Shown piece after piece: positions 23,445-29,864 of a stretch of 64,000 nucleotides of DNA. The position numbers and the translations under genes are program-made. The DNA comes from a phage: sequence record PX246730.1; one strand, 5' to 3'. A model generated the notes under the pieces. The model made no database searches and had not been told where the DNA came from. It worked only from the letters and a program-made list of their open reading frames with translations. How positions within the stretch are numbered: position 1 is the first letter of the stretch; the number at the start of each line of letters is the position of its first letter.

Positions 23445-24860
23445 ATGAGCGAGTTATTCAAACATGCGCACCTTCATGCAGGTCGAACTGAAAATGGTGC
23501 TGTAAACCATACTTCATCAATGTCTGCTCTGGTAGACTTCTACAAAGCCGCTGGCTCAAGCCGTAGCAATGTAGAAATCTTACCAGACCTGTTCTACAAA
23601 GCTTTGCGTGAGGATGTTGATGTTGCAGTTCGTATTTTACTGCATATGCGAGATGTACGAGAAGGTATGGGTGAGCGTAAAGCCTTCAGAACTGTTTTGC
23701 TTCAAGCGATTGAAGACAAAGTTTTAGAGCCTACACAGGTTCTTCGCATTATGGATAAGATTGCAGAGCTTGGTCGTTTTGATGACTTCAAAATCTTCGT
23801 AGGTACTCGTTTTGAGACAGATGCCTTTAAGCATTTAGAAGCAGCATTACTAGACCCTGAGACAGCAGGTTTAGCAGCCAAGTGGTTACCACGAGTAAAA
23901 CCACGACACAAACAGTTTGTAAAACGTTTCTGTAAGTTTGCAAACTTAAGCGAGAAAGAGTATCGCACACTGTTATCTGCACTGTCTGATACGGTTGAGC
24001 AAAAAATCTCTGCTAATGAGTTTGGTAAGATTGATTACAGTAAGATTCCTTCTCTTGCTGCTGCACGTTACCAAAAACTCTTTAACCGTAAAGATGGAGA
24101 ACGCTACAAAGCTTACATTGAGTCGCTATCAAAAGGTGAAGCTAAGATTAATGCTGGTGCTGTCTACCCATACGATGTGATTAAATCTATCAAGCATGGT
24201 AATGCAGATGTTGCTAATGAGCAGTGGAAAGCACTACCAAACTGGATGGCAGAAGGTGAGAACATCTTGTGTATGACTGATGTCTCAAGCTCAATGTCTT
24301 GGGTGAATCTTGGTTCAATCACGGCTCTTGATATTGGTGTATCTCTTGCCCTGTATGTAGCAGAACGCAATACTGGTTGCTTTAAGAATGAGTTAATGGT
24401 TTATTCAACAAACCCTCATTTCATTGAACTGAGTGGTGATTTACGAAACCGTCATCGTCAGGTGATGCGACACGTTGAATATGGTTCAACTAACTTACAA
24501 GCAGCTTTTGACCGTATTCTTGAGACAGGTAAAAGAAACAACTTGACTCAGAAAGATATGCCAAGTAAGCTTATCATCTTCTCAGATATGGAATTCAATC
24601 AGGTTGATGGAGCTAATGGTCGTACAAACTTTGAAGCAATTCAGAGTAAGTACAAAAAAGCTGGATATGAGATGCCACAACTGGTATTCTGGTACTTAGC
24701 AAACCGTAATGGTACTTGCGAAGTGTCTGTTAAGGATAACGGTGTAGCAATGGTATCTGGTTTCTCTCCAGCCACTTTAAAAGCTCTGCTTGGTGGTGAG
24801 AAGTTTGACCCAACCAGCGTAATGCTCAAAGCAGTAATGATTGACCGTTACATCTGGTAA
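23445..24860 (+). CDS. vWA-domain protein resembling Ro60/Rsr (TROVE + vWA)
   Basis: MIDAS motif DVSSSM followed by LGSI; C-terminal IIFSDMEF and GFSPATLKAL segments resemble Ro60 vWA (from memory); N-domain not verifiable. Confidence 0.55.
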   Translation: MSELFKHAHLHAGRTENGAVNHTSSMSALVDFYKAAGSSRSNVEILPDLFYKALREDVDVAVRILLHMRDVREGMGERKAFRTVLLQAIEDKVLEPTQVLRIMDKIAELGRFDDFKIFVGTRFETDAFKHLEAALLDPETAGLAAKWLPRVKPRHKQFVKRFCKFANLSEKEYRTLLSALSDTVEQKISANEFGKIDYSKIPSLAAARYQKLFNRKDGERYKAYIESLSKGEAKINAGAVYPYDVIKSIKHGNADVANEQWKALPNWMAEGENILCMTDVSSSMSWVNLGSITALDIGVSLALYVAERNTGCFKNELMVYSTNPHFIELSGDLRNRHRQVMRHVEYGSTNLQAAFDRILETGKRNNLTQKDMPSKLIIFSDMEFNQVDGANGRTNFEAIQSKYKKAGYEMPQLVFWYLANRNGTCEVSVKDNGVAMVSGFSPATLKALLGGEKFDPTSVMLKAVMIDRYIW

Positions 24861-25025: not shown

Positions 25026-25102
25026 CTCTGTTTAGCTCAGCTTGGTAGAGCGTTCCGTTTGGGGCGGTAAGGCCGGAGGTTCAAGTCCTCCAACAGAGAC
25101 CA
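25026..25102 (+). tRNA. tRNA-Pro(TGG)
   Basis: 7-bp acceptor CTCTGTT/AACAGAG, D-loop AGCTTGGTA, anticodon loop TTTGGGG, T-loop TTCAAGT, CCA encoded. Confidence 0.75.
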
Positions 25103-25109
25103 AATTAAT

Positions 25110-25187
25110 GTTCCAGTAGACAAAATGGTATAGTCACCACTCTTTCAAAGTGGATATTTGAGGGTTCAAATCCCTTCTGGAACGCCA
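25110..25187 (+). tRNA. tRNA-Glu(TTC)
   Basis: acceptor GTTCCAG/CTGGAAC, anticodon loop CTTTCAA, T-loop TTCAAAT, CCA encoded. Confidence 0.7.
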
Positions 25188-25192
25188 GTTTT

Positions 25193-25267
25193 GACAGAAG
25201 ACCAATTGCAGCAAACTTAATCTTATTCATCTGAAGGTAAATCGGACAAAGAAGAGATTTGGTCTGG
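25193..25267 (+). ncRNA. framed element a (ACAGAAGACC ... GGTCTGG closing stem)
   Basis: member of 4-copy family with covarying closing stem; function unknown. Confidence 0.3.
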
Positions 25268-25279
25268 TCATTAAGAATT

Positions 25280-25355
25280 GCGGGTATAGAGAAAGGGCGT
25301 CTCACATGTCTCATTAGCATGGTATCGGCAGGTTCGACTCCTGCACCCGCCTCCA
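25280..25355 (+). tRNA. tRNA-Met/Ile2(CAT)
   Basis: anticodon arm CATGT-CTCATTA-GCATG, T-loop TTCGACT; acceptor register ambiguous. Confidence 0.55.
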
Positions 25356-25360
25356 AATTT

Positions 25361-25436
25361 ACAGAAGACCGTTTACAGCAATACTTATTAAATTTTTAGC
25401 GGAAAAAATTGAAAGATACGGTCTGGTAATACTAAA
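25361..25436 (+). ncRNA. framed element b
   Basis: AGACCG/CGGTCT closing stem (compensatory change versus element a). Confidence 0.3.
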
Positions 25437-25439
25437 CAT

Positions 25440-25513
25440 GGTTAGGAAGCACATAAGGTATGTGCGGTCGCCTGTTAAGCGAATGGCACAGGGTTCGAAT
25501 CCCTGACTAACCG
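25440..25513 (+). tRNA. tRNA-Asn(GTT)
   Basis: D-stem GCAC/GTGC, anticodon loop CTGTTAA, T-arm CAGGG-TTCGAAT-CCCTG. Confidence 0.7.
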
Positions 25514-25525
25514 CAAAATTTAAAT

Positions 25526-25613
25526 GTGTCGTTATCCCGTAGATGGTAGCGGTGGGGACTGTAAATCCCTTGTCATTGAGACTCGGTAGGTTCGACTCCT
25601 ACACGGCACACCA
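25526..25613 (+). tRNA. tRNA-Tyr(GTA), long variable arm
   Basis: acceptor GTGTCGT/ACGGCAC, anticodon loop CTGTAAA, 15-nt variable arm, CCA encoded. Confidence 0.7.
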
Positions 25614-25674
25614 ATTTTGAGAGGGCTATTTAGCCCCTCCCTTAAAGAGTTCTTACGAGTATTCTTTAAAGGAG

Positions 25675-25748
25675 CAGAAGACCAAATACAGCAAGTTACT
25701 TAAAATTTCAAGCCAATTTAATTTTGAAAAATTTAAAACTTGGTCTGG
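25675..25748 (+). ncRNA. framed element c
   Basis: AGACCA/TGGTCT closing stem. Confidence 0.3.
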
Positions 25749-25760
25749 CTCAACAAATTT

Positions 25761-25893
25761 ACAGAAGACCGTTTACAGCAAAACTTAAACAATCTATTTC
25801 TCTGGTAAAGAAAAGGCGAAGGTTCGATTCCTTCACTCGGCAGATGTCGAGTTGGTGTAATGGTAGCACTTAAGATGATAAACAACGGTCTGG
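25761..25893 (+). ncRNA. framed element d enclosing permuted tRNA halves
   Basis: GACCGTT/AACGGTC closing stem surrounds 25797-25870. Confidence 0.35.
25797..25870 (+). tRNA. candidate circularly permuted tRNA-Thr(GGT): 3' half precedes 5' half
   Basis: 3' half = anticodon arm TTTCT-CTGGTAA-AGAAA + T-arm GAAGG-TTCGATT-CCTTC + ACTCGGC; 3 nt later 5' half GTCGAGT + D-arm GTGT-AATGGTA-GCAC; acceptor strands complementary at 7/7 with one GU. Confidence 0.4.
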
Positions 25894-25896
25894 TAA

Positions 25897-26036
25897 TTAT
25901 CTTTGTAGATAAGTTATTAAGCTTACCTGTGAGTATGCGACCACAAAGGGTGAAAGGGTAAATTCTAGATTTAAACCCAACAAGGCACATCGCTACAGAC
26001 CTTAAGCAAGTCTGGGTAGCTTATCTACAAAGATAA
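25897..26036 (+). ncRNA. ~140-nt element closed by 15-bp stem (TTATCTTTGTAGATAAG / CTTATCTACAAAGATAA)
   Basis: long-range perfect inverted repeat. Confidence 0.3.
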
Positions 26037-26042
26037 TTTAAT

Positions 26043-26118
26043 GGAAGTGTAGCAGAATGGTGATGCGGCAGACTTTTAATCTGACAGGCGATGGGTTCGA
26101 ATCCCTCCACTTCTACCA
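26043..26118 (+). tRNA. tRNA-Lys(TTT)
   Basis: acceptor GGAAGTG/CACTTCT, anticodon loop CTTTTAA, T-loop TTCGAAT, CCA encoded. Confidence 0.7.
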
Positions 26119-26122
26119 ATAT

Positions 26123-26199
26123 GGTTCAGTCGCAGATAAGGTAATGCAGGGGTCTCATAAGCCCTATGAATGTGGGTTCGATTCCCATCTGAACCTCCA
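26123..26199 (+). tRNA. tRNA-Met/Ile2(CAT)
   Basis: acceptor GGTTCAG/CTGAACC, anticodon loop CTCATAA, CCA encoded. Confidence 0.7.
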
Positions 26200-26201
26200 A
26201 T

Positions 26202-26277
26202 GCTGTGAAAGCACATATGGATGTGCATTCGGCTGATAACCGAAAGGAAGAAGGTTCGAATCCTTCTCACAGTACCA
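26202..26277 (+). tRNA. tRNA-Ile(GAT)
   Basis: D-stem GCAC/GTGC, anticodon arm TTCGG-CTGATAA-CCGAA, CCA encoded. Confidence 0.75.
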
Positions 26278-26290
26278 ATTTCAATAAAGT

Positions 26291-26319
26291 TGTTGACACT
26301 GAGATGTGACTACTTTATA
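26291..26319 (+). promoter_or_regulatory. strong sigma70-like promoter TTGACA-N17-TATAGT inside tRNA array
   Basis: read directly. Confidence 0.6.
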
Positions 26320-26526
26320 GTAACCTTAGTTTTCGTTGCGTAGCGTCTATTTTGCAAATTTAAAATAAATGCAAACGACAATGTTTTTCTGGCAGTAGCT
26401 TGATAGGCTAAACACCAGTGAGGTCTTCCAATCCCTCATCAAAGAATTTGGCGTACTAGCCCACGGTATGATTAATAAGGTGGGCATCTTTAAGGGCTTT
26501 CTAAGAGAGTCTTTAAAGATTAATTA

Positions 26527-26608
26527 CGGGGCGTATCTCATCTGTCTTCTAAACAGACGTTAACCGAGTAAGTGGAGTATGCGGGTTCGAGTCCTGCCGC
26601 CTCGACCA
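26527..26608 (+). tRNA. non-canonical tRNA-like element with Arg(TCT)-type anticodon hairpin and no recognisable D-arm
   Basis: acceptor CGGGGCG/CGCCTCG, hairpin TCTGT-CTTCTAA-ACAGA, 23-nt extra segment, T-arm GCGGG-TTCGAGT-CCTGC, CCA encoded. Confidence 0.4.
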
Positions 26609-26751
26609 ATTTAGTTAGCAGATTACTTAGACGACCTAAGCGGGTCTTCCTGTAGGGAGGTGGTCTGTATCTCATGTTTTCCAGAACATGTAAATAATCT
26701 GAGAAGGGGCTTTACAGTGTTGAGATAATACGGTAAGCTTCGAATTATAGT

Positions 26752-26834
26752 ATGGGACGATGTTAAGACTCTAAGGCATGAGCAACGGCTTCCAACACCG
26801 TTTCAAAGGGGTTCGACTCCTCCGTCCCATGCCA
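26752..26834 (+). tRNA. tRNA-Trp(CCA), atypical (extra nt between acceptor and D-arm)
   Basis: acceptor ATGGGAC/GTCCCAT exact, anticodon loop TTCCAAC, CCA encoded. Confidence 0.55.
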
Positions 26835-26847
26835 AAGTCTTATTAGG

Positions 26848-26935
26848 GGTAGGTAGCGGCTAATGGTAGCCAAACTGTCTTGAAAACAGTTGCCACTGTA
26901 GAGATACGGTGAGGGTTCGACTTCTTTACTTACCG
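26848..26935 (+). tRNA. tRNA-Ser(TGA), long variable arm
   Basis: anticodon arm ACTGT-CTTGAAA-ACAGT, 20-nt variable arm, T-loop TTCGACT. Confidence 0.7.
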
Positions 26936-27091
26936 CCTAATAAGATTTTAAAGCCAAGCTTCATTCGGATGTTGCTTTGGTATCCCTCGTGTTGTCGAAC
27001 ACACTAATAAAGCACCTAGTAGGTGTCACGGAGAAGAGATAATATCAAGCTCTCCAAAGGTTCTAGTCACCGGATTAAACAAGACTATGCA

Positions 27092-27112
27092 AAGACCTTT
27101 TTAGGTCTTTTT
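27092..27112 (+). terminator. hairpin AAGACC/GGTCTT plus T-tract inside tRNA array
   Basis: read directly. Confidence 0.45.
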
Positions 27113-27191
27113 AGAGGGCTTCTAAGGTTATTACAGCTTGTTGTGGAACCTTGTTGCTTAGGTTCTTAGAAGTTCTCTAAAAAGATTTAAT

Positions 27192-27269
27192 GGGAGATTG
27201 ACGGTAATTGGTAAACCTATCTCGCTTAGAACGAGATGTTTGAGGGTTCGAATCCCTTGTCTCCTACCA
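27192..27269 (+). tRNA. tRNA with anticodon TAG (Leu-type), short variable loop
   Basis: acceptor GGGAGAT/GTCTCCT (GU ends), anticodon arm TCTCG-CTTAGAA-CGAGA, CCA encoded. Confidence 0.6.
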
Positions 27270-27276
27270 AATTAAT

Positions 27277-27352
27277 GCAGGTGTAGCAAAATGGTTATGC
27301 GGCTGACTCTTAATCAGTAAGACGATGGGTTCAATTCCCTCCACCTGTACCA
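27277..27352 (+). tRNA. tRNA-Lys(CTT)
   Basis: acceptor GCAGGTG/CACCTGT, anticodon loop CTCTTAA, CCA encoded. Confidence 0.7.
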
Positions 27353-27358
27353 GATATT

Positions 27359-27434
27359 GGGGATGTAGTTTACATGGTTAAAACATAAGTTTTGCAAAAT
27401 TAAGTACAGGGTTCAATTCCCTGCTTCTCCACCA
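27359..27434 (+). tRNA. tRNA-Ala(TGC)
   Basis: D-stem GTTT/AAAC, anticodon loop TTTGCAA, T-arm CAGGG-TTCAATT-CCCTG, CCA encoded. Confidence 0.65.
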
Positions 27435-27440
27435 ATTAGT

Positions 27441-27515
27441 GCATCCATAGTTTAAACGGGAAAATTACAGTCTTCCAAACTGAGGTTGAGGGTTCGATTC
27501 CCTCTGGATGCTCCA
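27441..27515 (+). tRNA. tRNA-Gly(TCC)
   Basis: acceptor GCATCCA/TGGATGC exact, anticodon loop CTTCCAA, CCA encoded. Confidence 0.7.
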
Positions 27516-27521
27516 AATAAT

Positions 27522-27598
27522 GCTGCTTTCGTATAATTGGCTATTACACATCCCTTGTAAGGATGGAAATGCAGGTTCGAGTCCTGTGAGCAGCACCA
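27522..27598 (+). tRNA. tRNA-Thr(TGT)
   Basis: anticodon arm CATCC-CTTGTAA-GGATG perfect, T-loop TTCGAGT, CCA encoded. Confidence 0.75.
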
Positions 27599-27602
27599 AT
27601 TC

Positions 27603-27688
27603 AGAGGTCAAGTGAAAGACCGCTGGTGTCAACTGAAGACCGTAACAAATTCCACGGAGTTGAGTTAGCGGCACAACTTCAGACCTCT
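27603..27688 (+). ncRNA. framed element f (AGAGGTC ... GACCTCT) containing GAAGACCG motif
   Basis: long-range 7-bp inverted repeat between tRNAs. Confidence 0.3.
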
Positions 27689-27693
27689 TTCAC

Positions 27694-27768
27694 ACTCGCT
27701 TAGTTTATATGGTAAAACACCACCCTTACAAGATGAAGAAAAAGGTTCAAGTCCTTTAGTGAGTACCA
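27694..27768 (+). tRNA. tRNA-Val(TAC)
   Basis: acceptor ACTCGCT/AGTGAGT, D-stem GTTT/AAAC, anticodon loop CTTACAA, CCA encoded. Confidence 0.6.
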
Positions 27769-27769
27769 T

Positions 27770-27847
27770 GTTCCAGTATCCCAATTGGCAGAGGATGCAA
27801 GCTCAAACCTTGTACTAGTGACGGTTCGAATCCGTCTTGGAACACCA
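27770..27847 (+). tRNA. tRNA with anticodon CAA (Leu-type), short variable loop
   Basis: acceptor GTTCCAG/TTGGAAC, anticodon arm GCAAG-CTCAAAC-CTTGT, CCA encoded. Confidence 0.6.
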
Positions 27848-27852
27848 ATTTT

Positions 27853-27928
27853 GCAGGATTAGTTCAAATGGATAGAGCAACAGTCTACGAAGCTGTTAAT
27901 AGGGGTTCGAATCCCTTATCCTGCGCCA
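27853..27928 (+). tRNA. tRNA-Arg(ACG)
   Basis: acceptor GCAGGAT/ATCCTGC exact, anticodon loop CTACGAA, CCA encoded. Confidence 0.7.
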
Positions 27929-27947
27929 ATTTAAAGAGGCTATTTAG

Positions 27948-28505
27948 ATGAGATATTTGAAGTATGCTTCATGGATTTTCTTAGCTTTGTTAGAGCCATT
28001 TGCAGCAATCTTAGCAGTAATTTTAGCACCCTTTGTGGTTCCATTCTACAGTGAAAAGAAAGGACACTTACCTTTTGGATTCAGATGGATGGAGACTTAT
28101 GATAACCCAATTGATGGTGACAAAGGCCACGTTGAGAGATGGGCTAAGATTAGAAAGATTGGTAAGCTCGGTGTTTATATGCAGAGAGTTGGATGGCTCT
28201 GGAGAAACAAAGCTTATAACTTCTCTTACCATGTGCTAGGAAGAGATGTAAAAGATGTTACTAAGTGGAAAGGTAATATCAACGTAAGTTCTAACCCTGA
28301 AGATAATCAGACAGGTTATCTCCTAATGTGGAACAGTAATGCTTGGGGATTATTCGCTTTTACCCCATCAATTAAAATCTTTGGTAAACAATTCTACTGG
28401 AGAATTTATGTTGGATGGAAACTTAAAAGTGTTGTCCCAGAAGAAAGAGCATTCTCAAGGGAAAGAGTTATGTTGGCATTCTTTATTCATCCACTAAGAA
28501 AGTAA
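27948..28505 (+). CDS. membrane protein encoded inside tRNA array
   Basis: 185 aa; N-terminal TM IFLALLEPFAAILAVILAPFVVPF; ATG verified. Confidence 0.45.
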   Translation: MRYLKYASWIFLALLEPFAAILAVILAPFVVPFYSEKKGHLPFGFRWMETYDNPIDGDKGHVERWAKIRKIGKLGVYMQRVGWLWRNKAYNFSYHVLGRDVKDVTKWKGNINVSSNPEDNQTGYLLMWNSNAWGLFAFTPSIKIFGKQFYWRIYVGWKLKSVVPEERAFSRERVMLAFFIHPLRK

Positions 28506-28513
28506 AGATTTAA

Positions 28514-28589
28514 AGGGGATTAGTTTACAAGGTTAAAACCTCGGTCTTTGAAATCGAAGAAGTTGGTTCAATTCCAACATCCCCCACCA
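28514..28589 (+). tRNA. tRNA-Gln(TTG)
   Basis: D-stem GTTT/AAAC, anticodon arm TCGGT-CTTTGAA-ATCGA, T-arm GTTGG-TTCAATT-CCAAC, CCA encoded. Confidence 0.7.
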
Positions 28590-28591
28590 AT

Positions 28592-28670
28592 GCTCCATTA
28601 CTCCAATTGGCAGAGAGGCCAGACTTAAAATCTGTGTTATGTATCGGTTCGAATCCGATATGGAGTACCA
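28592..28670 (+). tRNA. tRNA with anticodon TAA (Leu-type), 7-nt variable loop
   Basis: acceptor GCTCCAT/ATGGAGT, anticodon loop CTTAAAA, T-arm ATCGG-TTCGAAT-CCGAT, CCA encoded. Confidence 0.55.
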
Positions 28671-28675
28671 AATTT

Positions 28676-28751
28676 AGCGGTATAGCATAACTGGCAATGC
28701 AGCAGTCTCTGAAGCTGTCCTATTAAGGTTCAAATCCTTATGCCGCTGCCA
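28676..28751 (+). tRNA. tRNA-Gln(CTG)
   Basis: D-stem GCAT/ATGC, anticodon loop CTCTGAA, T-arm TAAGG-TTCAAAT-CCTTA, CCA encoded. Confidence 0.7.
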
Positions 28752-28782
28752 CTTCTAAGGGTTCTTACGAGAGTCCTTAAAT

Positions 28783-28858
28783 GTGGCCTTATCATAAAAG
28801 GTAATGACCCATGCTGTGAACATGGTCTATACGGGTTCAAATCCCGTAGGTCACCCCA
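28783..28858 (+). tRNA. tRNA-His(GTG)
   Basis: anticodon arm CCATG-CTGTGAA-CATGG perfect, T-arm ACGGG-TTCAAAT-CCCGT, CCA encoded. Confidence 0.75.
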
Positions 28859-28863
28859 ATTTA

Positions 28864-28937
28864 TAGTCCAAGTAGCTTATATGGTAAAGCGCGTGTCTGA
28901 AAAACATGAGAAGAGGGTTCAAATCCCACTGGACTAC
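28864..28937 (+). tRNA. tRNA-Phe(GAA)
   Basis: acceptor TAGTCCA/TGGACTA exact, anticodon loop CTGAAAA; 2 extra nt before D-stem. Confidence 0.6.
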
Positions 28938-28955
28938 CAATTTCAAAGGTGCTTA

Positions 28956-29690
28956 ATGAAAGAGATGACAGAACAAGGTAAGGAGATTTTTAATCTCTTA
29001 AAAACCGGTAGAGGGTTTTCTAATCCCCTTATTACTGGTGCAGCAGTTCTCGGTGGAACCGTAGCTGCCTCTACATCACTTGTAAGCTCTATTAGCTCTG
29101 TAACAGACCCTACAATAAAAGATAAGCTTGTTGCTGCTGGGCTTACAACAGTCCTCCTAAACAGCTTTACAACAAGCCTGACAAGCACTACAGCAACTAC
29201 TAAGACCCTGACAGACTACGGTCAAAAGTCTATTGATGAGTTTTCATCACGTATGCAGGTAGCAAAGGGATACTCCAATGTTATGGGTGCAGCAGGAGAA
29301 CAAGTTGGTTGTACACCATTCAGTGGTATTATGGGTGTTGCTACAGAGTATGGTCAAAAAGCTATTGACATGATGAACAGTACACTAGATAGTGTTAATG
29401 GTGTGTTAAGTGACTTACAAGATGCTATTGATAAGGGTCTTGATACTGTTTCTGATTTAGCTAACCAAGCTGTTAGTAAGATTAATGAAGGTATCTCGAA
29501 GATTACAGCTTATGCAGATGAAGTTGTGCAGATGATTGAAGAAGAAGCTGCCCTTATTGCAGAGTACCTTAAAACGAATATCAATGGGTTCTTAGCAGGT
29601 ATCTTACCAGACTGGTTTGATGATGCCTGTAAAACTGGTGTAATTGACACTATTGCAACACCAGAAATGAAGAGCGCATTACAGAAATAA
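28956..29690 (+). CDS. hypothetical protein (Ser/Thr-rich N-region)
   Basis: track ORF 28740 reads through three tRNAs; start moved to first ATG downstream of tRNA-Phe. Confidence 0.4.
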   Translation: MKEMTEQGKEIFNLLKTGRGFSNPLITGAAVLGGTVAASTSLVSSISSVTDPTIKDKLVAAGLTTVLLNSFTTSLTSTTATTKTLTDYGQKSIDEFSSRMQVAKGYSNVMGAAGEQVGCTPFSGIMGVATEYGQKAIDMMNSTLDSVNGVLSDLQDAIDKGLDTVSDLANQAVSKINEGISKITAYADEVVQMIEEEAALIAEYLKTNINGFLAGILPDWFDDACKTGVIDTIATPEMKSALQK

Positions 29691-29691
29691 T

Positions 29692-29784
29692 GGAAGATTA
29701 ACCCTAAAAGGTAAGGGAGCAGTTTGCTAAACTGCCAGTAGCTGAGAAATCGGTGTACCAGTTCAAGTCTGGTATCTTCCTCCA
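29692..29784 (+). tRNA. tRNA-Ser(GCT), long variable arm
   Basis: acceptor GGAAGAT/ATCTTCC exact, D-arm CCC..GGG, anticodon arm GCAGT-TTGCTAA-ACTGC, 21-nt variable arm, CCA encoded. Confidence 0.75.
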
Positions 29785-29788
29785 ATTT

Positions 29789-29864
29789 GAATCCGTGACA
29801 GAAATGGATATGTGCCTGTCTGCAAAACAGGTTTATAAGGGTTCGAGTCCCTTCGGATTCTCCA
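29789..29864 (+). tRNA. tRNA-Cys(GCA)
   Basis: acceptor GAATCCG/CGGATTC exact, anticodon arm CCTGT-CTGCAAA-ACAGG, CCA encoded. Confidence 0.75.

Follow-up and report, generated by a model that had tools for sequence, protein, structure and literature searches.

The 64,000-nt stretch of phage sequence record PX246730.1 analyzed here (the window), which comes from a Felix O1-like myovirus (Felixounavirus), carries within its tRNA gene cluster a locus at 25766-25892 in which the parts of a tRNA stand in circularly permuted order inside a terminal stem. We consider it probable that this locus specifies a tRNA mimic of the YrlA type, belonging to a new and widespread family of Y-RNA-like molecules that is tied to Ro60-like proteins of the DUF2828 clade, binding to the protein being predicted. 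A preliminary description had instead proposed a circularly permuted tRNA-Thr(GGU) gene whose ends are brought together by a long-range stem. We found no earlier description of this RNA family with its tRNA-shaped domain.

Between 25797 and 25869 the locus holds, in this order, an anticodon-like arm, a T arm, the 3′ strand of an acceptor stem, the 5′ strand of an acceptor stem and a D arm. All arms of a tRNA are thus present, as first described, with the 3′ half placed before the 5′ half. The enclosing inverted repeat (GACCGTT at 25767-25773 and AACGGTC at 25884-25890), originally given as 7 bp, is extendable to 8 bp. The elements of the candidate RNA, which we call module 2, are as follows.

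25766-25892, + strand: the whole candidate Y-like RNA (module 2), about 127 nt, carrying the permuted tRNA-like domain and conserved in over 240 phage records
25766-25773 with 25884-25891, + strand: frame stem of module 2, 8 bp, followed by UG
25774-25781, + strand: UACAGCAA motif beside the 5′ strand of the frame stem, invariant in the 16 variants aligned below
25797-25801, 25802-25808 and 25809-25813, + strand: 'anticodon' hairpin, made of TTTCT, loop CTGGTAA and AGAAA
25814-25817, + strand: variable region AGGC
25818-25834, + strand: T arm GAAGG-UUCGAUU-CCUUC, matched by the Rfam tRNA model and by our covariance model R1
25835-25852, + strand: closed acceptor-like hairpin ACUCGGC/GUCGAGU, 7 bp, loop AGAU
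25855-25869, + strand: D arm GUGU-AAUGGUA-GCAC, matched by R1, after UG at 25853-25854 (tRNA positions 8-9)

The two acceptor strands (ACTCGGC at 25835-25841, followed by A at 25842 and GAT at 25843-25845, and GTCGAGT at 25846-25852) form seven of seven pairs, one of them G·U, in agreement with the preliminary description. Linkers of 23 and 14 nt lead from the frame stem to the tRNA halves, with the conserved motif inside them, and we propose the UACAGCAA motif as a candidate protein-recognition element. ARAGORN called 0 tRNA genes at the locus in its native order, whereas the 5′ half, 0-1 nt, the 3′ half and CCA joined in silico were called as a tRNA-Thr(ggt) of 73-74 nt. The minimum free energy (MFE) fold has four hairpins inside the outer stem, with z = −4.3 for the whole 429-nt tRNA-free gap in which the locus lies, and a candidate inner helix AUCU/AGAU (25792-25795 with 25873-25876) was 85% paired in relatives, without covariation. 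Rfam scans of the locus in 6-kb, 436-nt and 146-nt searches returned only a partial tRNA match and weak matches to RF01414, the Dictyostelium Class I RNA family. A split group I intron (permuted intron-exon arrangement) and hairpin-ribozyme flanks were also considered and were dropped, there being no Rfam match to either.

We assessed conservation and covariation in an alignment of 16 distinct variants, drawn from Felixounavirus, Suspvirus and Mooglevirus genomes and from IMG/VR contigs. Predicted partners were paired in 95.2% of alignment cells, compared with 43-48% when partners were slid. Pairing was highest in the acceptor hairpin (99.1% of cells), where three of the seven pairs showed compensatory double changes (UA/AU/CG, GC/UA and GU/UG/UA) while the loop varied in length among relatives (4, about 4-6, or 8 nt). 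The T arm was invariant except for one G·U change, and the D stem and outer stem were invariant. The gap around the locus, which extends from the end of tRNA-Tyr at 25613 to the start of tRNA-Lys at 26043, is 96-99% identical in most of about 250 matching phage records and is more uniform than its surroundings. These comparisons among related phages, which the preliminary description had suggested as a check, indicate that the unit is under selection and functional and is not decaying; a decaying relic is disfavored because the acceptor hairpin keeps its pairing through compensatory changes. Tandem duplication followed by deletion, which had been offered as the alternative explanation, is likely as the origin of the unit, although conservation and covariation argue against a relic as its present state.

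The 'anticodon' hairpin was the least conserved helix (82.5% of cells paired), with a loop variable in both length and sequence. The loop reads CUGGUAA in the window; CCGGUAA was the commonest variant, a 6-nt CGGUAA was present in Felix O1, REP9, Mushroom and others (10 of the sampled loci), ESh22-like phages had CUAUAAA or CUAUGAA (triplet AUA or AUG), and Mordin-type phages had a different hairpin. Position 33 is thus U, C or absent among near-identical genomes. Position 48, the Levitt partner of A15, varied between C and A, and the Felix O1 copy, when rejoined, was reported by ARAGORN as 'tRNA-??? (gt)'. Because the anticodon loop varies and ARAGORN assigns no amino acid to the Felix O1 copy, these phages are not maintaining a decoding tRNA-Thr(GGU), and the proposed maturation by end-joining or through a circular intermediate is not supported. 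Covariance model R1, built only from the T-acceptor-D units of seven unrelated viral lineages outside the Ounavirinae, matched the window at 25814-25870 with 47.9 bits (E = 1.2e-9), and its next matches were tRNA-tRNA junctions at no more than 25 bits.

The frame around the permuted unit is itself repeated. The pattern CAGAAGACC-NNN-U(A/G)CAGCAA ... NNN-GGUCUGG is present in four copies in the tRNA cluster, three of which (modules A, B and 1) have no tRNA-like insert, and the inner stem positions differ by copy (CAA/UUG vs. CGU/ACG). The outer stem had been read as a helix for joining the two ends; it belongs to a module of stem and UACAGCAA motif of which these three further copies exist without tRNA parts.

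25200-25266, + strand: module A, GACCAA-U-UGCAGCAA ... UUGGUC-UG, in the spacer between tRNA-Glu and tRNA-Met; full-length RF01414 match, 16.5 bits
25367-25425, + strand: module B, GACCGU-U-UACAGCAA ... ACGGUC-UG, in the spacer between tRNA-Met and tRNA-Asn; full-length RF01414 match, 20.7 bits
25680-25747, + strand: module 1, GACCAA-A-UACAGCAA ... UUGGUC-UG, directly 5′ of module 2; RF01414 match, 15.3 bits

When the insert-less mini-modules were aligned with MAFFT the 3′ stems fell out of register, and for this reason the frame was defined by an explicit descriptor, controlled against shuffled sequence and the opposite strand, rather than by a covariance model. The strict descriptor consisted of a 6-9-bp stem (outermost 5′ G and 3′ C), 0-1 nt, NNCAGCAA, a 20-135-nt loop, the 3′ strand and UG. 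It matched the 64-kb window exactly four times, always on the + strand and in the tRNA cluster, and 100 dinucleotide shuffles of the window gave a mean of 0.14 matches. A literature search on the motif string returned nothing relevant.

Just upstream of the tRNA cluster lies a gene for a protein with a Ro60-like fold.

23445-24860, + strand: gene for the 471-aa Ro60-like protein, with Pfam domains DUF2828 and DUF7788

The protein matches PHROG 850 ('RNA-binding protein') and had no match in an NCBIfam search. An AlphaFold model made from 41 homologues reached pLDDT 87 and pTM 0.88, and the vWA MIDAS residues D279, S281, S283, T349 and D381 were invariant in the homologue alignment. In a Foldseek search against the PDB the top nine matches were all Ro60 or TROVE structures, aligned over the full length (E 3e-8 to 5e-7); they included Ro60 of Thermus phage phiLo, Xenopus and human as well as Deinococcus Rsr, with 9KOP as the best, and matches to the vWA domain only came after a clear gap. 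Orthologues point the same way: gp130 of phage Bas63 was reported as Ro60-like and counters the ppl defense system, a published lead for the biological role, and homologues from mycobacteriophages carry the annotation 'Ro-like RNA binding protein'. Over 700 sequenced phages, with hosts among the Proteobacteria, Firmicutes and Actinobacteria, encode a protein of the DUF2828 clade.

Modules of stem and motif recur beside DUF2828 genes in phages of several bacterial phyla, including most of the unrelated phages that we compared, and they do so strand-specifically. The strict descriptor, run on ten annotated DUF2828 phage loci, gave 11 matches on the gene strand and 0 on the opposite strand. Seven tandem modules, each with a different stem, stand just before the DUF2828 gene in Aeromonas phage LAh_6 (locus L012, 2990-3960), and three stand just after it in Staphylococcus phage 6ec, with no adjacent tRNA. 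Gene-strand stem and CAGCAA modules likewise adjoin DUF2828 in Yersinia phage P778 (three copies, one with a T arm), Listeria phage LP-124 (three), Mycobacterium phage Snenia, Sinorhizobium phage phiM12 and Campylobacter phage Los1 (two each), and Cronobacter phage S13. The UACAGCAA motif itself was found at the equivalent module position beside DUF2828 genes of unrelated phages. Across 65 IMG/VR loci encoding DUF2828 proteins 39-47% identical to that of the window, a relaxed version of the descriptor matched 58 times on the gene strand vs. 8 times on the opposite strand (p = 9e-11), and 38 of 53 tallied matches lay within 700 nt of the DUF2828 gene.

Several of these framed RNAs carry tRNA-derived inserts, arranged in more than one topology. 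The permuted T-acceptor-D order recurs in unrelated phages; in other cases a T arm is followed directly by a D arm, or a normal D-anticodon-T order is kept with the frame stem and motif replacing the acceptor stem (L118, 5328-5428, with anticodon loop CUUUUAA; L108, 5191-5315). Phage S13 (L013, 5895-6015 and 6025-6137) and Aeromonas phage Ah1 (L019, 6140-6270 and 6287-6405) have normal-order tRNA-like RNAs of 113-121 nt, about 0.5 kb (S13) and about 2.2 kb (Ah1) downstream of the DUF2828 gene, in which a hairpin and a motif, CAGCA(A/C) or CCGCAA (AUUCAGCA[C/U] in S13, UUACCGCAA in Ah1), stand in place of the anticodon arm. A CCA end is encoded in both S13 RNAs and in the second Ah1 RNA, and is lacking in the first. 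These RNAs are annotated as tRNA-Ser or tRNA-OTHER and received no ARAGORN call; in their order of elements they read as a circular permutation of the window type.

Four of about 11 lineages have exactly N-CCA and then a 4-15-nt spacer after the acceptor 3′ strand (binomial p = 1.8e-5): GCCA in Mordin, ACCA in S13 and L085, and GCCA and C-CCA in L064, at sites in the acceptor loop of Mordin and Michonne, at about 6220-6240 in L013, and at 2440-2470 and 2810-2835 in L064. The window copy has A-GAU in place of N-CCA. This recurrence suggests either that RNase P opens the molecule and exposes a CCA end or that the unit arose recently from tandem tRNA genes, and because N-CCA and spacer occur in these lineages some members would probably be opened by RNase P into two-piece, CCA-ended molecules.

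For a Listeria phage, strong transcription of non-coding regions just upstream of the homologous gene has been reported. Within LP-124 (L018, 929-1480) we also observed a match to ROOL RNA at 87.4 bits (E = 3.8e-16), just below the gathering score, about 1 kb upstream of DUF2828 and amid tRNAs and the three mini-modules, with an RtcB ligase gene 1.3 kb downstream.

The closest known relatives in architecture are the YrlA-type Y RNAs of bacteria and phages, in which a terminal stem that binds Ro60 is followed by a V hairpin of low conservation, a T arm, a loop-closed acceptor stem and a D arm (Chen et al. 2014, PMC4201824). The consensus structure of the YrlA family RF02553 shows this same order of elements. 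Module 2 shares the order throughout, and it also shares a nearby gene for a Ro60-type ring protein and a motif on the 5′ side of the terminal stem; what had been taken for an anticodon arm corresponds to the poorly conserved V hairpin. Although the preliminary description was aware of no such gene order in phages, Y RNAs whose domain combines a T arm, a closed acceptor stem and a D arm have been described in bacteria and in mycobacteriophages (PMC4201824). The RNA of the window further resembles Mycobacterium smegmatis YrlA, the only YrlA with a 7-bp acceptor stem, which RNase P cleaves and to which CCA is added (PMC4201824).

The window RNA differs from YrlA in several respects. Its T- and D-stem sequences are unlike the near-invariant ones of YrlA, its predicted partner belongs to the DUF2828/DUF7788 clade and not to Pfam TROVE, it sits in a tRNA operon together with three insert-less sister modules, and its linkers from the frame stem to the tRNA-like core are long (23 and 14 nt). 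Intermediate cases exist beside other DUF2828 genes, where RF02553 (gathering threshold 69 bits) matched at 39.3 bits in Snenia (E = 2.6e-7, local search) and at 35.2 bits in phiM12, and in both of these RNAs the terminal stem is followed by a CAGCA(A/C)-type motif (CACAGCAA in Snenia, AACAGCAC in phiM12). Thermus phage phiLo offers a second parallel, as it encodes a Ro60-fold protein with stem-bulge RNAs, Yrl1 and Yrl2, beside the gene (PMC12135203; 9KOP, 9L5Y). The phiLo RNAs have a CGAA motif and no tRNA-like domain has been reported for them, and binding is experimental in phiLo but predicted for the window.

For the YrlA-like reading we infer the following course of transcription, release by tRNA processing, protein binding and biological role. 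The polycistronic transcript of the tRNA operon would include a non-coding RNA about 127 nt long (25766-25892), and processing of the tRNAs on either side would free the module RNAs. In the 127-nt RNA, the 5′ and 3′ ends would pair as the 8-bp stem with the single-stranded UACAGCAA motif next to it, and the interior would fold as a circularly permuted tRNA whose chain ends lie away from the acceptor. Stem and motif would dock on the Ro60-like ring protein encoded at 23445-24860, leaving the tRNA mimic to serve as an effector or tethering domain that may recruit or distract tRNA-recognizing factors, with modification enzymes, RNase P, the CCA-adding enzyme, PNPase and tRNA-targeting defense nucleases as candidate host factors. 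Were the window copy to be opened by RNase P, CCA addition would be needed, given its A-GAU.

Several observations weigh against this reading. The Ro60 match of the protein is by predicted fold only, at 12-16% identity; searching the PDB by sequence gave nothing significant, and a profile search found Ro60 only at E 0.3-0.9. The gene ends 906 nt from module 2 on the same strand, and with about 900 nt, two promoter-like sites (24879 and 24970, consensus matches only) and five tRNAs in between, linkage in the window phage is by itself weak, so that the case for an RNA-protein pair rests on recurrence elsewhere. About 40% of the distant DUF2828 loci had no descriptor match. The 5′ side of the window RNA reads CAGAAGACCGUU-UACAGCAA, without the GNCGAA(N0-1)G of YrlA, and RF02553 had no match at the locus at E ≤ 10 in the 6-kb, 436-nt and 146-nt searches. 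Because of this missing match and the replacement of GNCGAA by UACAGCAA, we class the RNA as YrlA-like in its working and not as a member of RF02553. Finally, the modules occupy inter-tRNA spacers and could be processing or stability elements.

This last point leads to the strongest alternative, which we regard as unlikely but deserving of weight, namely a functional tRNA mimic that is independent of the Ro60-like protein. The RNA would then be a decoy or substrate for host tRNA nucleases or other tRNA enzymes, or would be opened by RNase P at 25845/25846 into two pieces and given CCA, with the frame acting as a processing or stability signal. A 7-bp acceptor stacked on a canonical T arm is a determinant for RNase P (PMC4201824), and the N-CCA and spacer of some lineages, the open CCA end of S13- and Ah1-type relatives that have the same parts in normal order, and the position of the modules between tRNAs all fit such a role. 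Yet modules cluster on the gene strand by DUF2828 even where no tRNA is adjacent (6ec and LAh_6), and the window copy does not have the CCA. Nor does RNase P opening oppose the Ro60 reading, with which it is compatible: YrlA of M. smegmatis is both Ro60-bound and cleaved by RNase P.

Very improbable, by comparison, is a genuine permuted tRNA-Thr(GGU) gene, in which the outer stem would bring the ends together and the transcript would be circularized or joined there and then opened at the acceptor, as in Cyanidioschyzon merolae. Circularly permuted tRNA genes are found in C. merolae, some other algae and archaea. The window locus shares with those of C. merolae a 3′ half that precedes the 5′ half, acceptor ends connected by a short linker and a cloverleaf upon rejoining, called tRNA-Thr(ggt) by ARAGORN; moreover, the window has no GGU isoacceptor, tRNA-Thr(UGU) being its only Thr tRNA according to ARAGORN. 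In phage vB_EcoM_ASO1B (MZ726792.1, 27251-27379), a tRNAscan-SE annotation even places a 129-nt 'tRNA-Thr-GGT' over the equivalent of window 25713-25842, but this call combines the real 3′ half with a spurious 5′ strand, GCCAATT, taken from module 1, and misses the true downstream 5′ half. The anticodon loop is not conserved among near-identical phages, down to U33 itself, position 48 varies opposite A15, and linkers with a conserved motif separate the halves from a frame that also exists without tRNA parts. No bulge-helix-bulge motif was present in the MFE or centroid folds, which give a plain 8-bp stem followed by the 23-nt and 14-nt linkers. No circularizing pathway is known in the host of the window phage, and enterobacteria are not known to have a splicing endonuclease of the kind that the C. 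merolae-type pathway uses. Where C. merolae has a splice helix, the termini in the window are held by a conserved module of putative protein-binding type, and the product probably stays permuted.

Just as improbable as a permuted gene is a non-functional relic, in which deletion or homing-endonuclease traffic would have left the 3′ half of a tRNA beside the 5′ half of a tandem duplicate: the cluster is indeed rich in indels, with HNH endonuclease genes gained and lost among relatives and a tRNA-Asp or tRNA-Thr(CGU) beside tRNA-Tyr missing from the window, and the N-CCA and spacer in some acceptor loops resemble a former inter-tRNA spacer, but the near-uniformity of the 429-nt gap, the compensatory changes across three genera and the recurrence of the T-acceptor-D layout in a similar frame in unrelated phages speak against it.

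Two-piece tmRNA also bears comparison with the window locus, in that the acceptor 5′ strand comes only after a T arm and an acceptor 3′ strand, the latter with CCA in some relatives, and opening of the linker in the manner of RNase P would yield a two-piece tRNA-like molecule. The locus differs in having neither a tag reading frame nor pseudoknots, and at 25614-26042 there was no ARAGORN tmRNA call and no match to RF04321 or RF00023.

The YrlA-like locus is part of a cluster of 24 tRNAs on the + strand, from 25026 to 29864 (ARAGORN), and over the 2 kb around it Escherichia phage REP9, Salmonella phage Mushroom and Felix O1 show 96-98% identity to the window. Directly after tRNA-Tyr (25613/25614), relatives have a further tRNA that is missing from the window: Felix O1 and Mushroom have tRNA-Asp(GUC) there, and REP9 has an 86-nt 'tRNA-Thr(CGU)'. 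Just 3′ of tRNA-Tyr, at 25614-25675, are two conserved hairpins, GAGGGCUAUUUAGCCCCUC and CUUUAAAGAGUUCUUACGAGUAUUCUUUAAAGGAG, without a T-run terminator. Another structured element follows module 2.

25894-26040, + strand: module 3, structured RNA of about 147 nt with a closing stem of about 20 bp in the MFE fold

Module 3 had no Rfam match at these positions, and its long stem and inner hairpin show compensatory changes between Felixounavirus and Mooglevirus/Suspvirus. The inner hairpin reads CUACAGAC-CUUAAGCAA-GUCUGGGUAG, and its loop CUUAAGCAA is similar to the module motif. Further downstream, 26219-26525 gave weak tmRNA and tmRNA_permuted matches (15.6-24.7 bits), and 26527-26605 matched the Rfam tRNA model at 33.4 bits, without an ARAGORN call and with the annotation 'tRNA-OTHER' in REP9. 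A mechanical open reading frame of 316 aa at 28740-29690 has DUF7217 from residue 80, and as its 5′ end overlaps tRNA-His and tRNA-Phe, the real start codon probably lies downstream of 28939.

The minimal form of the frame resembles the Class I RNAs of Dictyostelium. These have a short terminal stem, an AAG start, a CUGU end and, following the 5′ strand, the 11-nt motif CCUUACAGCAA, and they have been reported as unique to Dictyostelia, with the eukaryotic promoter element DUSE and the binding protein Rnp1A/CIBP (PMC7919456). The phage modules resemble them in a terminal stem with outermost 5′ G and 3′ C, an (A)AG start, a C-UG(U) end, the single-stranded CCUUACAGCAA right after the 5′ strand, a loop that is A/U-rich and variable, and an overall size of about 55-70 nt. 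The window modules follow G-ACC..-(A/G)UU(U/A)(A/G)CAGCAA ... GGU-C-UGG, which fits the Class I pattern and makes homology a possibility, with all RF01414 scores below threshold, and a LAh_6 module reads AAAGGUUCC-UUACAGCAA...GGGAACC-UGUC. RF01414 was the only Rfam family to recognize the frame: it matched all four window modules over their full length (13.0, 15.3, 16.5 and 20.7 bits) and the seven LAh_6 modules at 19.1-29.6 bits (E 0.003-1.4 in a 1.1-kb search), and it had no match elsewhere in any search. All of these scores are below the gathering threshold of 41.5 bits; Class I RNAs also differ in having no tRNA-like inserts and in their eukaryotic promoter. A literature search on DDB_G0281243, a protein from a Class I RNA pull-down, found only a preprint naming it. 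From motif and layout, the resemblance may be taken as a lead and not as a finding.

Combining these strands, we put forward tentatively, as a broader proposal that is more doubtful than the YrlA-like reading of the locus, that RNAs with stem and UACAGCAA motif may be the RNA partners of the DUF2828 Ro60-like clade. Such a family would be modular, with at least four permutations or topologies of the tRNA domain, some members being two-piece, CCA-ended and possibly chargeable, and its minimal form would be of the Class I RNA kind.

Two recent papers, on Bas63 and on Listeria phage CKA15, guessed that Y RNAs lie near the Ro60-like gene, and none was identified; the present analysis supplies concrete candidate RNAs with their coordinates, the motif that they share and a descriptor with which to search for them. 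Tools that scan for tRNAs mishandle these loci, as seen in the spurious 129-nt tRNA-Thr-GGT, the 'tRNA-OTHER' entries and the oversized tRNA-Ser calls. The occurrence of one tRNA mimic in several permutations around a single, putatively protein-binding module amounts to a natural experiment on how a tRNA-like domain can be built and used. What Class I RNAs do has been open since 2004, and the resemblance to the phage modules suggests a DUF2828/Ro60-like protein as a candidate binder; if the phage modules are indeed of the Class I kind, Class I RNAs would be the Y-RNA analogues of a Ro60-like protein.

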